A stretch of 64,000 nucleotides of DNA, from positions 2,401,382 through 2,465,381 of the forward strand of contig NZ_CP019448.1 in the NCBI RefSeq assembly GCF_002951835.1, written 5' to 3'. Made by a program: the position numbers and the translations under genes. This DNA is from Simonsiella muelleri ATCC 29453. GTDB lineage: Bacteria > Pseudomonadota > Gammaproteobacteria > Burkholderiales > Neisseriaceae. This document shows, piece after piece, positions 31,292 to 39,945 of this stretch. Each line of letters opens with the position of its first letter. The stretch's first letter is position 1. The notes beneath the pieces were generated by a model. It had not been told where the DNA came from. It did no database searches and was given only the letters and a program-made list of their open reading frames with translations.

Positions 31292-32710
31292 ATGACTGGT
31301 TTTGTTGTGATTGGCATGATTGTTTTGATTGCTTTGCTGATGATTGGCTTGGTGTTGGCTTTGTTGTATCGTCGCGTGGTAAAAACCAACGAAGTACATA
31401 TCGTGCAAACCAATCGTGATACCAAATCATTTGGTAAAGACACCAATAATGGCAATGTGTATTACGCATTTCCATCGTGGATTCCGAAATTGGGTGTATC
31501 CACGATTGTGCTGCCGATGTCAGTTTTTGATGTGCGAATCAATGATTATGAAGCCTATGATTTGGAACGTTTGCCTTTTAAAGTGGATTTGACAGCATTT
31601 TTCCGTATTTCAGAATCTAATCTTGCTGCGCAGCGCGTGTCTAATTTTGAGGATTTGCAAGCACAATTGGAAGCGATTATTCAAGGTTCGGTGCGTTCTA
31701 TTTTATCCAGCAAAAATTTGAATGACATTTTGCAAATGCGTAGCGAATTGGGACAAGATTTTACTGATGCAGTACGCGAACAGTTGCGAAATTGGGGCGT
31801 TGAGCCAGTGAAAGCCATTGAATTAATGGATATTCGCGACAGTGGCGACAGTAAAGTGATTCACAATATTATGGCAATTAAGCAATCGGATATTGAACGC
31901 CAAAGCCGTACTGAAGTTGCCAAAAATCAAAAAGAAGCTCAATTGGCAGAAATTGAAGCCCAAAAAGAAGCCGACATTAAACGCCAAGAAGCCGAACAAG
32001 CGGTCGGTATGAAAACGGTAGAAAATCATCGTGAAGTGGCGTTGCAAGAACAAAAAGCACAACAGCAAATTGAAAGCGAAAAGAAAATCACTGCCGAGCA
32101 AGAAATGGCGGTAAAACGCGTAACCAGCACGCGTGAGGCAGAAATTGCTAAAGATGTGGCGATTGTGAATGCAGAAAAAGACCAGCGTGAGCGCGAAATC
32201 AAAGCAATGGCGGATAAAAATGTGATGGAAGTGAATGCCGAAGCTGAACGTAATCGCCAAATTTTGGTGGCAGAAGGTCAGAAAGAACAAGCGTTTTTGG
32301 CGGCCGCCGCAAATTTGGAAACTAAAGATAAAGAAGCGCAAGGTATCGCAAAAATCGGTTCTGCTGAAGCCGAAGCGCGAAAATTATTGGAAATTTCTTT
32401 GGTATCGGGGCAAATTCAGTTAGCGCAAGAAATTGGTGAAAATGAAGGTTATCAACGCTATTTGATTGAAATTCGCCAAGTGGAAGCCAATGAAAAAATT
32501 GGTATTGAACAGGCTAAAGCGTTGTCGGCGGCGGATTTGAAATTGATTGTGAATGATGGTGGTTCTGTGGTGGGCGGTATGGATAAATTAAGCAAATTGT
32601 TGTCATCGCAAGGTGGGGCAAATTTGGGTTCTATGCTGGAGAGTTTGGGGCAATTTGAAAACGGTCAGAAGTTGATTGAGAAATTTACTCGCCCCAATGA
32701 TACAGAATAG
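31292..32710 (+). CDS. Flotillin-like SPFH/band-7 protein (YqiK-like)
   Basis: N-terminal transmembrane helix, an SPFH domain and an E/A/Q-rich coiled-coil region. 472 aa. Confidence 0.85.
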   Translation: MTGFVVIGMIVLIALLMIGLVLALLYRRVVKTNEVHIVQTNRDTKSFGKDTNNGNVYYAFPSWIPKLGVSTIVLPMSVFDVRINDYEAYDLERLPFKVDLTAFFRISESNLAAQRVSNFEDLQAQLEAIIQGSVRSILSSKNLNDILQMRSELGQDFTDAVREQLRNWGVEPVKAIELMDIRDSGDSKVIHNIMAIKQSDIERQSRTEVAKNQKEAQLAEIEAQKEADIKRQEAEQAVGMKTVENHREVALQEQKAQQQIESEKKITAEQEMAVKRVTSTREAEIAKDVAIVNAEKDQREREIKAMADKNVMEVNAEAERNRQILVAEGQKEQAFLAAAANLETKDKEAQGIAKIGSAEAEARKLLEISLVSGQIQLAQEIGENEGYQRYLIEIRQVEANEKIGIEQAKALSAADLKLIVNDGGSVVGGMDKLSKLLSSQGGANLGSMLESLGQFENGQKLIEKFTRPNDTE

Positions 32711-32839
32711 AGATACAGTGAAGTCAAATTGTACTGGCACCATATGGTCATTATGTACACAGCGGTCATGGTTGTCTTATTCTAATCGCCGTATCCTTGA
32801 ATTAGAAAATTAATTAAGAATTAAATTGTTAAATCAAAA

Positions 32840-32884
32840 GGCAGCCTGAAAACATTTTATCAATGCGTTTTCAGGCTGCCTTCA
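32840..32884. terminator. Inverted DUS pair between the convergent flotillin and psd genes
   Basis: AGGCAGCCTGAAAACATTTTATCAATGCGTTTTCAGGCTGCCTTC. Confidence 0.5.
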
Positions 32885-32892
32885 TTTAATAA

Positions 32893-34443
32893 TTATTTTT
32901 TATCTTTGATTTCCGTCCGAATAATCACTTCACGCGGTTCAATGGTCTGCCAAGGTTCGGGCACGGCTGCAAACACTTCACGGCGCACAATGGGTGGGCG
33001 TGCTGCAATTTCAGCTAACGCTTCAGCTTCGGCTTTTGCTTTGGCTTCTTGTTCGGCTTTTACTTTTGCTTTTGCTTCTGTAGCTGCTTTTGCTTTAGCA
33101 GCAGCATCTGCTTTTAATTTGGCTTCCGCATCGGCACGCGCTTTGGCGATGGCTTCTTCTTTTGCTTTTGCTTCTGCCAGAACTTTAGCCTCCTGTTCAG
33201 CTTTAGCTTTAGCGGCAGCGGCTTCTTGTTCAGCTTTTAATTTTTCTGCTTGAGCTTTAGCTTCCTGTTCGGCTTTAGCTTTAGCGGCAGCGGCTTCTTG
33301 TTCAGCTTTTAATTTTTCTGCTTGAGCTTTAGCTTCCTGTTCGGCTTTAGCTTTAGCGGCGGCGGCTTCTTGTTCAGCTTTTAATTTTTCTGCTTGAGCT
33401 TTGGCTTCTTGTTCAGCTTTTGCTTTAGCGGCGGCAGCATCTTGTTCCGCTTTTAATTTTGCCATTTCGGCTTCGGCTGCAGCTTTGGCACGTTCCACTT
33501 CCAAACGTGCTTGTTCGGCTTGGGCTTTTAATTGTGCAATCTCTGCATCGGCTTGTGCTTTGGCTTGTGCTACTGCTTGACGTGCTTGCTCATTTTCAGC
33601 TTTTAATTTTTCGGTTTCGGCTTTCAATCGTGCTTCTTCTTCAGATACTTGCGTCAACTCAAATTGTGTTGTTGTGCTGGCTGCGGTAGGTGTAGATTCA
33701 GCATGTTGCGCTTGGACATCGGCTTTTAAGCGTGATTCAGCTAACGATTTATTGGTAGAAATACCATTGTTTTCATCATCGGGCACATCGGATTTTTCTA
33801 ATGGCAAATACGCCAAAATGGTTTCACTGGCGCGAATTTTATCGCCAATTGCCACGTTTGCTGTTGCGTCTAATGGTAAATATACATCAATGCGTGAACC
33901 AAAACGAATGAAACCATAGCGTTCGCCACGCAAAATACTGTCGCCTTTATTGGTGTAACACAAAATGCGACGCGCAACCAACCCTGCTACTTGTACCACA
34001 GTTAATTCACGCCCTGTGCGTGTGGTCATTAATACCGCGTTGCGTTCGTTTTCGTTGCTGGATTTGTCTAAAGACGCGTTTACGAATTTGCCTGCGGTGT
34101 ACTGTACTTCTGTTACACTGCCTGAAATAGGTGAGCGTTGTGAATGTACATTGAATATATTCATGAAAATACTGATTTTCAATGCACTGGTTTGACGATA
34201 TGGGTCAATCGCGCGTTCTACCACCACAACTCGTCCGTCTGCGGGTGATAAAATTGCATCGGGTGCTTCGGGAATATTTCGTGCTGGGTCGCGGAAAAAA
34301 TTCACGCAAAACAAGGTAAACGCCCAAAACGGTAGCGACCACCAACCACATAAACAAGTAAACAAAACACTCAACACCAGTCCGCCAATAATAAACAGCC
34401 AGCCTTCTTGGGCAATAATGGTATGTGGATAATAACGGTTCAT
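32893..34443 (-). CDS. psd: Phosphatidylserine decarboxylase-family proenzyme (short type) fused to a roughly 300 aa Ala/Glu/Lys-rich coiled-coil repeat tail
   Basis: The N-terminal roughly 215 aa carry the FGSR autocleavage motif ([18 protein letters not shown]). The C-terminus has four 24-aa repeats ([24 protein letters not shown]), which correspond to 72 bp tandem repeats at about 33180-33470. Confidence 0.7.
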
Positions 34444-34780
34444 TGTGAATCCTTCAGCTTAAAATACAGGAGCAAGATTGATTAAAAAAATGATAGCCTT
34501 GAATTATATCTGAATGGGGGCAATTTTCCTATCATATTAATGGGGATTTGTGTGTGGCTGTGGTTTTCAGGCAGCCTGAAAAAATAACGTATTCAGTAAA
34601 ATAGAAAAATTGCTGTTATTTTAGGGATAAATGGGCGTGGGGGTGGCGGCGATATGCAACGTTTTTTATGAATTGACAAAATAAATTTCAGGCTGCCTGA
34701 AAATAAATTACCACAAAATAAAATATTTAGGTTAGAATCCCAGTTCATTTTTAACCATTTTAACCATAAGGACAACACCG

Positions 34781-36792: not shown

Positions 36793-39700
36793 TTAGAAGA
36801 AAATGCCATTATTGTAACGTTTAGGATTTATGCTGTAATTGGAAATTTCAGGCACAGGCAAACCTTCGTCTGTTGCTGCATCAGCGTGAGTCGGTGGCGA
36901 AGATAATGTAGCAGAACTATTAACAACAATTTGTTCTGGTTCATCTTTTTCAGCTGGCTCAATTCTGTCGTTGATGGCATCAATATTTTCAGCTTGTTCC
37001 GTTTGTAATGTATGTTTACGGAACACGGACGCAAATGAATTTTCACCAATTGTTTTGGGCGCAAATGGTGATTTTTTGGGTGTAGGCGTTTCAACAGGTT
37101 TTACCACTTCGCTGCTAACCGATGATACGGTATTCGTTTTTTCAATTGTTTGAGTTGGTGGAGTGTTTTCCGCTACTTGAGTTGTCTGAATTTTCGGTTT
37201 AACTGGAGAGGACTCAATTTCCACTCTAGGCGTAATTTCCCCTGTTGGTACGTTCGTGCTGCCTGAATTTTGTCCTGATTGAGCATTTACATTTGGTGTG
37301 TTTTTGGGTGCTACGACCACTTCAATAGTGGCTTTTTGTGGCACGGCTTGTACCGTAATTGTAGGTTTTTTGGGTTCTATCGTGTGAACCACTGGTACTA
37401 CAGAAATTTGTGGTTTTGTTTCTGCAACAGGTTGGTTGGCAATCTGAACGGATTCTACAGAAATTTCTGGTTTTGTTTCTGCAACAGGTTGGTTGGCAAT
37501 CTGAACGGATTCTATAGAAATTTGTGGTTTTGTTTCTGCAATAGGTTGGTTGGTAATCTGAACAGATTCTACTTCTATAGAGATTTCTGGCTTTGTTTCT
37601 ACAATAGGCTGGTTGGTAATCTGAACCGATTCTATTTCTACAGAGATTTCTGGTTTTGTTTCTACAATAGGCTGGTTGGTAATCTGAACCGATTCTATTT
37701 CTACAGAGATTTCTGGTTTTGTTTCTGCAACAGGTTGGTTAGCAATCTGAACAGACTCTATTTCTACAGAAATTTCTGGTTTTGTTTCTGCAACAGGTTG
37801 TGCAGGTTTGGTCAATTTGTCGGCTGGCAAACCTGCCATGCTTGCCTGTGTTAGATATTTTGCCAATGAACTGGTTTGTGGTGCAGAAGGTGCTTTGGGT
37901 GGCTCGGGCGCAATCGCTGGTGCAACAGGTCTTTTGTTTATGCTTACTGAAATATTTTTATTTTCAGTGGATTGGATTGTGGGCGTAGTCTTTTCCACAA
38001 CGGGTGTTGCGGCTGCCGATTGGGTCTCATCGGGTATGTATTTGGCGAAAATATTTGGTTTTTGGTTATTCGTTAAAATGGTGGATTTGGGTAATACCAT
38101 TTGCACGGGCGCGACGTGTAATTCTTCCTCTTCAATGACATGGCACACAGCTGCATTTGCAGGCTGCGTATTTTCAGATGATGTGGTGGGGGCTGCGGTT
38201 TGGGTAGGTTGTTGGGGTTCTGCATCATCTGGAGCTTCGGCGCGTGATACGGCAACGATTGTGCTGTCAGACGCATTGGCTAGTGCATCATTTTGCATTG
38301 CTTCAAATTCAGGTCGCTGCTTTTTGCCAAACAGCGAACAAAGCCAGCCAAAAAGTCCACCTTTAGACTTTCGTGGTGCAGATGAATTGGGTGCATTTGT
38401 ATTCATGTTATCAGACTCATTTGGCAAAGGTTGATTGGTTTCAATAATTTGTTCAGCATTTTTTTCAGGCTGCCTGAAAGATTCGGTGCTGGATTCGGTT
38501 ATGGTTTGTGGTGGTGTTGGTTCGGAGGCAATGGGTTTGCTTTCGGGCGACACAAGCGAAACAGGGGTATCGGTTGATTTAACCAATTTCGCATCTGTTT
38601 TCATGCCAACCAATGCGCTTGGTGGTGCGATAATTGGATTATTTGTCAAATTTTCGGGTGTGGCAACCGATTCATTGGTTTGGGTTGTGTCGGTTTGTGG
38701 TGTTTGTTCGCTGGATTTGGGTAACTCGGATTCAGTGATACTGGGTTGCGATGCAACATCATCAAATTCTTCGCCGATTACTTCGGGTTTGGGTAAATGC
38801 AAACCTGCTTCGGTCAGCACGGCATAAGCGGCTAATTCGTCTGTGTTTCGGCGTAGGTATTGGTGTAATTGCAAAAAATGCATTTCCAATTCTGCTGCAC
38901 GCGCAGGATGGTAATACCAATCCAGTACGGCATTTGCCAATTTTTCTGGTGTGGCATCTTTTTGCAGCAATTCAGGTACAACTTCTCTACCCAATAAAAT
39001 ATTGGGTAAACCCACATATTGAATTTTAATTTTGCGCTTGACTAATGCATAAGTCAAAGACGAAATACGGTAACTAATCACCATCGGACGTTTGCACAAA
39101 GCCACTTCCAATGAAGCAGTCCCACTGGTTACCAATACAACATCAGCTGCTATACACGCCAATTCGGTTTTGGCAGCCTGAAGACGAATGGGTAAATAAC
39201 GAAATTCTTCTTGTTGTAAATATTCTTGCAAACACTCGCGTACACCAGCTGAAGGGTAGGGCATCAAGAAGACAGCTTCAGGTAAGGCTTTGACAATTAA
39301 AGCGGCAGCACGTAAGAAAACCGGTGCCATATATTCCACTTCACTCACACGGCTACCGGGGAGCAATGTGAACACGGGTGCAGTCAAATTTAATTTCAAA
39401 CGTTCGCGCACGGCTTCGCGACTATTTTCCAGTGGCAGCATTTGTGCCAAAGGGTGTCCAACGTATTCTGCTTTGCCACCAGCATCACGATACAATTTGG
39501 GTTCCATTGGGAACAAACACAAAACCTGATTTACTTGACGCACGATTTTATGTACTCGCTCGGGTTTCCATGCCCACACCGAAGGGCTAACATAATGTAA
39601 AGTAGGAATGCCTGCGGCTTTTAATTTGGCAGCGACTGTTAAATTAAAATCGGGCGAGTCAATGCCAACAAAAACATGTGGGCTGATTTTGCGTAAATCT

Positions 39701-39945
39701 TCCACTAAACCACGGCGAATACGCAAAATTTCAAATAGGTTACCCAAAATTTCAGTATAACCGCGTACTGCTAGGGCATCTTGTTCATATAAGCTAATTA
39801 AACCAGCCGCTTTCATGCGAGGACCACCAATTCCGACAAAACGTGTATTGGGATACTGTTGTTTAAGTGCATCAATTAAATGTGCGCCGAGTAAATCGCC
39901 AGAGGCTTCGCCAGCGCAGAGTGCGATAATAATTTCTTTATTCAT
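36793..39945 (-). CDS. lpxB: Lipid-A-disaccharide synthase fused in frame to a roughly 660 aa low-complexity tail rich in Pro, Thr, Gln and Glu
   Basis: aa 1-385 are a full-length LpxB (GEASGDLLGAHLI ... GT-B fold). No stop follows. The tail includes seven copies of the 21-aa repeat KPEISVEIESVQI(T/A)NQP(I/V)(V/A)ET, which correspond to roughly 57-63 bp tandem repeats at 37395-37800. Confidence 0.8.
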   Translation of the reverse strand: MNKEIIIALCAGEASGDLLGAHLIDALKQQYPNTRFVGIGGPRMKAAGLISLYEQDALAVRGYTEILGNLFEILRIRRGLVEDLRKISPHVFVGIDSPDFNLTVAAKLKAAGIPTLHYVSPSVWAWKPERVHKIVRQVNQVLCLFPMEPKLYRDAGGKAEYVGHPLAQMLPLENSREAVRERLKLNLTAPVFTLLPGSRVSEVEYMAPVFLRAAALIVKALPEAVFLMPYPSAGVRECLQEYLQQEEFRYLPIRLQAAKTELACIAADVVLVTSGTASLEVALCKRPMVISYRISSLTYALVKRKIKIQYVGLPNILLGREVVPELLQKDATPEKLANAVLDWYYHPARAAELEMHFLQLHQYLRRNTDELAAYAVLTEAGLHLPKPEVIGEEFDDVASQPSITESELPKSSEQTPQTDTTQTNESVATPENLTNNPIIAPPSALVGMKTDAKLVKSTDTPVSLVSPESKPIASEPTPPQTITESSTESFRQPEKNAEQIIETNQPLPNESDNMNTNAPNSSAPRKSKGGLFGWLCSLFGKKQRPEFEAMQNDALANASDSTIVAVSRAEAPDDAEPQQPTQTAAPTTSSENTQPANAAVCHVIEEEELHVAPVQMVLPKSTILTNNQKPNIFAKYIPDETQSAAATPVVEKTTPTIQSTENKNISVSINKRPVAPAIAPEPPKAPSAPQTSSLAKYLTQASMAGLPADKLTKPAQPVAETKPEISVEIESVQIANQPVAETKPEISVEIESVQITNQPIVETKPEISVEIESVQITNQPIVETKPEISIEVESVQITNQPIAETKPQISIESVQIANQPVAETKPEISVESVQIANQPVAETKPQISVVPVVHTIEPKKPTITVQAVPQKATIEVVVAPKNTPNVNAQSGQNSGSTNVPTGEITPRVEIESSPVKPKIQTTQVAENTPPTQTIEKTNTVSSVSSEVVKPVETPTPKKSPFAPKTIGENSFASVFRKHTLQTEQAENIDAINDRIEPAEKDEPEQIVVNSSATLSSPPTHADAATDEGLPVPEISNYSINPKRYNNGIFF

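Follow-up and report, generated by a model that had tools for sequence, protein, structure and literature searches.

Bacterial phosphatidylserine decarboxylase (Psd) is commonly regarded as a housekeeping enzyme of minimal design, and the psd gene in the 64,000-nucleotide stretch of Simonsiella muelleri DNA analysed here (the window) raises the question of why such an enzyme should continue for 301 residues beyond its catalytic core, with a pyruvoyl-bearing chain that would carry a rod of 23–48 nm and a unique end-piece. An earlier note on this DNA had described a short-type Psd with an FGSR self-cleavage site and a tail of about 300 residues, rich in Ala, Glu and Lys, which it read as heptad-like, coiled-coil and TolA-like; the observation is confirmed, whereas its interpretation is borne out in part. 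The reading that we favour, with a probability of about 0.55, is that of a self-processing Psd whose alpha chain forms a rod, anchored in the membrane and variable in length, that presents an interaction peptide, with the cleavage, topology and monomeric state as predictions and the binding as a putative function. It would be a known enzyme with a tail so far unreported in the literature searched, a Psd variant with a rod and a terminal module.

The enzyme portion itself appears conventional. The Pfam model PS_Dcarbxylase (PF02666) matches aa 42–210 with an E-value of 2.6e-44 (151.7 bits, cut-off 22) and NCBIfam NF003680 covers aa 1–214 with 348.3 bits (cut-off 262), in agreement with the short-type assignment and the core boundary given in the earlier note, and a Pfam scan of the 516-aa protein found no other domain at E<=1. 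The N-terminal MNRYYPH is kept in all homologues aligned, and two alignments, of 29 and of 49 Neisseriaceae Psd proteins, both show a conserved hydrophobic anchor at aa 15–50 and invariant F181, G182, S183 and R184 as well as D69, H100 and S183; we infer that the latter three correspond to the catalytic Asp/His/Ser triad of the E. coli enzyme. A Foldseek search with the AlphaFold2 (AF2) model gave as its best, although weak, match PsiD, a pyruvoyl decarboxylase of the PSD family, and a sequence search of the PDB returned low-complexity noise only. By its domain content, the gene product is a real phosphatidylserine decarboxylase with predicted activity. Since the Psd family self-cleaves at a Gly-Ser bond, all of the tail would lie in the alpha chain, which bears the pyruvoyl group, and the predicted cleavage between G182 and S183 would produce a beta chain of 182 and an alpha chain of 334 residues, in which case the usual size relation of the two chains would be reversed. 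The assignment of the tail to the alpha chain was absent from the earlier note, as were the terminal module and the AESRLKAD motif listed in Table 1; the interval it gave, 32893–33800, covers the tail but not the whole open reading frame.

Table 1. Coordinates of the psd gene, its parts and the neighbouring genes within the window.
Feature	Position	Strand	Basis
Complete psd gene, 516 codons and stop, one ORF	32893..34443	(-)	ORF listing
Shine-Dalgarno GAAGGA, 6 nt 5′ of the psd ATG	34450-34455	(-)	sequence
Psd catalytic core, short type, aa 1–215	33799..34443	(-)	PF02666, NF003680
N-terminal hydrophobic membrane anchor, aa 15–50	34294..34401	(-)	sequence; AF2 helix 6–50
FGSR self-cleavage motif, aa 181–184	33892..33903	(-)	sequence; alignments
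Disordered linker, S/T/P/D/N/Q-rich, aa 216–265	33649..33798	(-)	AF2 pLDDT <50 for 221–266
Linker motif AESRLKAD, aa 235–242	33718..33741	(-)	sequence comparison
Ala/Glu/Lys/Gln helical rod, aa 266–481, ~216 residues	33001..33648	(-)	AF2, charge and periodicity
Four tandem 72-bp/24-aa units, aa 329–424	33172..33459	(-)	TRF, unit listing
Conserved 37-residue C-terminal module, aa 475–511, then IKDKK and stop	32911..33021	(-)	alignment, codon comparison, HMM scan
Terminator hairpin, inverted DNA-uptake-sequence pair then UUUU, directly 3′ of the psd stop	32829..32889	(-)	folding
Flotillin-like SPFH/Band_7 protein, 472 aa, convergent with psd	31292..32710	(+)	
LpxB (lipid-A-disaccharide synthase), 1050 aa, 2.4 kb upstream of psd	36793..39945	(-)	

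The 301 residues that follow the core are divided into a linker, a helical rod and a terminal module. In the AF2 model of the full 516-aa protein, which has a mean pLDDT of 66, the rod is predicted as two helices, at 266–385 and 395–481, with a break at 385–395, while the end module has a pLDDT below 50 and is docked nowhere, the termini being of low confidence. The AESRLKAD motif of the linker has counterparts in the Alysiella and Conchiformibius proteins as AE[ST]RLKAD and in A. filiformis as ARLKAD. Residues 263–482 consist of 39% Ala, 19% Glu, 17% Lys and 9% Gln, and within them Tandem Repeats Finder (TRF) reports a period of 72 bp in 4.0 copies at 33172–33460 (94% matches, score 480), within 10 bp of the four repeats that the earlier note had placed at 33180–33470. 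Each 24-aa unit opens with KLKAEQ[D/E], closes with [AQ/VL]AE and is itself built of an 11-aa and a 13-aa sub-unit, both starting with AEQEA.

The array differs in length among conspecific alleles, as had been expected from repeat slippage. Eighteen near-identical Psd proteins from other assemblies are 455–506 aa long and the window allele, with 516 aa, is the longest seen, copy-number differences that derive mostly from short-read metagenome assemblies and of which some could be assembly errors. Relative to the window allele, the others carry in-frame indels of 13, 22, 24, 37, 48 and 61 aa within aa 329–424, a few further indels of 1–10 aa (1, 2, 4 and 10) elsewhere in the protein and 0–1 substitutions in the core. 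The unit of 72 bp is divisible by three and all observed indels are in frame, which makes for variation in length and not for on/off switching. If each allele formed a straight helix, the rods would span ~23–32 nm, with ~3.6 nm added by every 24-aa unit. In the Alysiella crassa DSM 2578 draft (NZ_KN050787.1, 1299..3044 of the extracted locus L001) the psd array is interrupted by a stretch of N, which indicates that the array defeats short-read assembly, so annotated lengths need care.

Relatives with comparable extensions are found in two further genera. Simonsiella, Alysiella and Conchiformibius share the same plan of the tail and the same end module, with a different unit amplified at the same place: a 51-bp (17-aa) unit in the 565-aa Psd of A. 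crassa, a 96-bp (32-aa) unit in the 590–622-aa proteins of an Alysiella-like genome and a 48-bp (16-aa) unit in the 506–522-aa proteins of Conchiformibius steedae, whose closed chromosome CP059563 encodes a homologue of 506 aa. All four amplified units remain rich in Ala, Glu and Gln, their basic residue being Lys or Arg, and such retention of composition in different units argues for selection on a physical property rather than on sequence. The flanks of the rod can be aligned between Simonsiella and Alysiella and are conserved. A stop codon directly after the Psd domain is not seen in the orthologues of these three genera; elsewhere the tail is either short or absent.

The end of the tail is strongly conserved, more so than the catalytic core. 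Across the three genera 34 of the 49 alignment columns of the module are invariant, and over its 37 codons the ratio of synonymous to non-synonymous differences between the window and A. crassa is 13:1, and 13:5 against C. steedae, compared with 76:28 and 68:53, respectively, for the catalytic core. Judged by these codon counts, the tail end is at least as constrained by purifying selection as the enzyme core, and this speaks for a further role outside catalysis, for instance in positioning the enzyme, in scaffolding or in recruiting a partner. The tail also appears from comparison of the reading frames to be translated to its end, because all 18 alleles and the homologues of the other genera stay in frame over more than 200 repetitive codons and finish with the same module. 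Antisense open reading frames across the tail were considered and rejected, as the synonymous and non-synonymous pattern fits the minus-strand frame. A profile HMM of the module, run against 1.84 billion representative proteins, matched its own Psd cluster only (E 1.9e-24); the 48-aa end module gave no matches when searched by word index, the short query sharing too few indexed words, and a degenerate DNA pattern for a stretch of 10 residues had no match in the JGI metagenomes.

How unusual the tail is can be judged from the other Psd proteins. Outside the Neisseriaceae, the matches inspected have open frames of 215–237 codons and lack a tail; long forms in Gallionella, Desulfotignum, Desulfurivibrio and Syntrophales were rejected as candidates, being ordinary open frames of the same 215–237 codons. 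No Psd examined within the family is without a tail, the length of which is 25–115 aa in Neisseria, Uruburuella and contigs of the eikDUS type, contigs being typed here by the dialect of their DNA uptake sequence (DUS). In these proteins (P0043-P0165) a P/A/T/E/Q-rich linker of 0–90 aa is followed by an acidic amphipathic helix, EQxxIExAAxKVRxAAExE, which appears to be an undescribed, family-wide feature of the Neisseriaceae Psd. AF2 predicts this helix at aa 220–238 of one of them (P0096), with its placement lacking confidence, and the model of a 241-aa eikDUS-type, Eikenella-like Psd has low-confidence termini and gives no information on docking. The combination of rod and module is seen only in Simonsiella, Alysiella and Conchiformibius among the sequences assignable to a taxon, and in a scan of genome contigs A. 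crassa was the sole member of the clade among the matches listed. The judgement of the earlier note that such a tail is uncommon for a Psd thus holds. In the literature searched no paper combines PSD with the Neisseriaceae, and no bacterial PSD with a helical extension at its C-terminus is described.

Simonsiella, Alysiella and Conchiformibius do not form a clade that would exclude Kingella (PMC10715097), and the Kingella sample consists of a single contig, L090, assigned from its DUS type (18 copies of kingDUS against 4 of simDUS, 59% GC); Kingella oralis is the species in which kingDUS was first described (PMC3630211). The contig encodes the Psd core closest to that of the window, with 74–75% identity, in a 302-aa protein (P0034, 10001..10909) whose tail of 87 aa, rich in P/Q/E, finishes with the basic cluster KPAKPKRSRSKKQPPAESE (KPKRSRSKK) and contains neither a rod nor the PEPWQTIEP module. 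Going by its sequence, this basic end is a third kind of Psd terminal element within the same clade. Another Neisseriaceae-like contig, L092 (logan:SRR32406422_22547, 4.6 kb), encodes a 290-aa Psd and carries four copies of AGGCCACCTGAA and no named DUS dialect; the repeated element may represent an undescribed dialect.

The genomic neighbourhood offers little guidance as to the function of the tail. In the window the gene order is Bax1-I, psd and the flotillin-like Band_7 gene; in C. steedae psd lies beside tyrS and unrelated genes, and a mucDUS-type Neisseria contig has the order aroD-psd-ftsK. The neighbours thus differ in each genus and the gene order gives no functional clue. The psd gene looks monocistronic, and its terminator (folding energy -30.3 kcal/mol, z = -7.1), formed by the DUS copies at 32839–32850 and 32870–32881, is common to psd and the convergent flotillin-like gene. 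The flotillin-like protein has an E/A/K/Q-rich helical region of its own with 23% identity to the Psd tail; a functional link between the two genes was nevertheless rejected, since their adjacency is absent in C. steedae and Neisseria and the similarity is compositional.

Altogether the window holds 50 copies of AGGCAGCCTGAA (kingDUS) and 39 of AGGCTGCCTGAA (simDUS), with 0 expected by chance, at a GC content of 40.5%, a pattern matching that reported for Simonsiella muelleri (PMC3630211; PMC7371117). Examples of these sequences lie at 32839–32881, 34566–34580 and 34687–34701; many of the copies are overlapping dyads, TTCAGGCTGCCTGAA, and inverted pairs form the terminators that flank psd. Two arrays in the 64 kb reach a TRF score of at least 150, those of Psd and LpxB, and both extend lipid enzymes of the cytoplasmic face. 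The Pfam domain of LpxB spans only aa 7–375, the remaining ~675 aa being an S/T/P/Q/E-rich extension with a 63-bp tandem repeat at 37398–37800 (6.6 copies, unit about VAETKPEISVEIESVQIANQP); with 1049 aa in contig L081 and 1027 aa in L085, this protein is polymorphic in length as well.

ER/K single alpha-helix domains and synthetic (EAAAK)n linkers serve as rigid spacers of tunable length, and the rod looks like a charged, Ala-rich spacer of this type, presumably monomeric. It is read as a single helix because it has no hydrophobic seam and because pairs of opposite charge spaced i/i+3 or i/i+4 are enriched in it (0.296 per residue; shuffled sequences, 0.169 ± 0.022); in the 24-aa unit all five Lys residues have Glu at i+4. 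With a rise of 0.15 nm for each residue, a single straight helix of this size would measure ~32 nm. The heptad-like coiled coil proposed at first sight fares less well. The hydrophobic power at period 3.5 is 5.5 on the KD scale, far below the 95th percentile of shuffles (68.6), there is no power at period 3.65 either, and the dominant period of 2.0 reflects the alternation of Ala and polar residues; large hydrophobic residues number 19 in the 216-residue rod, and the repeats have a single Leu in every 24 aa. Across the genera the units measure 24, 16, 32 and 17 aa, none a multiple of 7; such lengths, together with indels of 1–61 aa, would repeatedly break the register of a parallel coiled coil or Ala-zipper that dimerised or oligomerised Psd and clustered the enzyme in the membrane, and such an assembly would leave the strongly conserved, Pro-containing terminal module unexplained. 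A short coiled-coil stretch could still form in aa 267–330, the conserved segment on the N-terminal side of the rod, where large hydrophobic residues are spaced 7, 11, 11, 3, 9, 2, 11 and 3. The charge of the rod (41% charged residues and 39% Ala) lies below that of classical ER/K helices, so that an Ala-based dimeric or antiparallel packing is conceivable, and AF2 breaks the helix at 385–395; with these points taken into account, we regard a coiled coil as rather unlikely. The likeness to TolA holds for composition, which resembles TolA domain II and yields a weak match to TIGR02794 at E 5.8e-4, but the score of 19.2 bits falls well short of the cut-off of 59.45, the match is confined to low-complexity aa 378–477 and TolA domain III was not found in the Pfam search at E<=1. 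The sequence between core and tail contains no hydrophobic or transmembrane segment, which would put the tail and the active site on one side of the membrane, and the cytoplasmic leaflet is where PSD acts in bacteria (PMC7952604), for which reasons the tail is most likely cytoplasmic; a periplasmic domain bridging the envelope between the inner membrane and either the peptidoglycan or the outer membrane is accordingly very improbable.

A rival to the single-helix spacer is that an ancestral disordered tail has grown by selectively neutral expansion of low-complexity sequence into a rod with no function of its own, and that only the enzyme and perhaps the end peptide matter. This account would agree with the variable tails of 25–115 aa in the Neisseriaceae Psd proteins, with the polymorphism of the rod within the species, with the length-polymorphic repetitive extension of LpxB 2.4 kb upstream and with E. 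coli PSD, where the C-terminal 35 residues (288–322) are dispensable for catalysis in vitro and were removed for crystallisation (PMC7952604). We consider it unlikely nonetheless, as even the shortest complete allele seen (455 aa) keeps ~155 helical residues, the rod flanks are conserved between Simonsiella and Alysiella, and four lineages have independently re-amplified different units with the Ala/Glu/Gln-rich, helix-favouring charge pattern kept. That an artefact of assembly or annotation should have produced the array, or have fused the tail to the core, is hardly credible: while short reads handle arrays of 288 bp poorly and the A. crassa draft is gapped at this very place, the identical 516-aa frame was called on 10 independent metagenome contigs from different samples, the closed C. 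steedae chromosome encodes its own long homologue, each genus has kept both the reading frame and the end module, and a strong terminator follows the stop codon.

The reading of the rod as a single-helix spacer would allow the following model. Psd would process itself, and the alpha chain, aa 183–516, would be extended on the cytoplasmic side by a linker that is flexible, a rod that is rigid, charged and rich in Ala, and the 37-residue terminal peptide. The rod would act as a spacer under no constraint of register, the length of which unequal recombination or slippage could change freely; recombination between repeats would alter length and leave the fold intact, which would account for the polymorphism as well as for the different units of the lineages. 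The terminal module would be the selected functional end, most likely binding a protein or membrane site away from the anchored enzyme, with the effect that Psd would be placed relative to a putative partner or the partner placed at the sites of phosphatidylethanolamine (PE) synthesis. The terminal peptide provides a ready bait for such a partner, and the length alleles form a natural series on which a spacer or ruler model can be tested.

Simonsiella, Alysiella and Conchiformibius are filament-forming oral bacteria that are multicellular and divide longitudinally. The tail could then be an adaptation of the multicellular, longitudinally dividing Neisseriaceae that tethers PE synthesis to a cytoskeletal, divisome or membrane-domain partner at a fixed distance and so links lipid synthesis to the unusual septation of these bacteria, a speculation that we regard as doubtful. 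Phospholipid genes have already been implicated in the transition to multicellularity and longitudinal division, where cdsA adjoins amiC2 (PMC9395523), and psd is not mentioned in a published study of longitudinally dividing Neisseriaceae. The LpxB extension may be a second example of envelope-lipid enzymes tethered throughout the lineage or, alternatively, may be a sign that the lineage simply tolerates such expansions.

Among known systems, the closest to the protein is the ordinary short-type Psd of bacteria and archaea, with which it shares the core of aa 1–215, the N-terminal anchor, the Gly-Ser site and D69, H100 and S183; those enzymes, however, end at ~215–237 aa and have an alpha chain of ~30–35 residues, whereas that of Simonsiella would have 334. 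The remaining Neisseriaceae Psd proteins have the same succession of core, variable linker and conserved terminal element, but their linkers are disordered rather than helical and their end elements differ from the PEPWQTIEP module. E. coli PSD likewise has an additional C-terminal segment of the alpha chain on the cytoplasmic side, of ~35 residues in contrast to the 301 of the Simonsiella tail with its helical rod and conserved module. TolA domain II offers a parallel in overall design, a long Ala/Lys/Glu-rich helical spacer in a membrane-anchored protein presenting a C-terminal interaction element; TolA, however, is a periplasmic member of the Tol-Pal system with a globular domain III, and the Psd tail stays under the cut-off of its HMM. 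To the ER/K single helices and (EAAAK)n linkers the rod is similar in its dense i/i+4 Lys-Glu network and its want of a hydrophobic seam, differing in its lower proportion of charge and its high Ala content. Finally, FtsZ has a linker of variable length and sequence that ends in a short, conserved, partner-recruiting peptide; its linker is disordered, not helical, and bears no sequence relationship to the Psd tail, yet the plan of a variable linker with a conserved end is the same in both.
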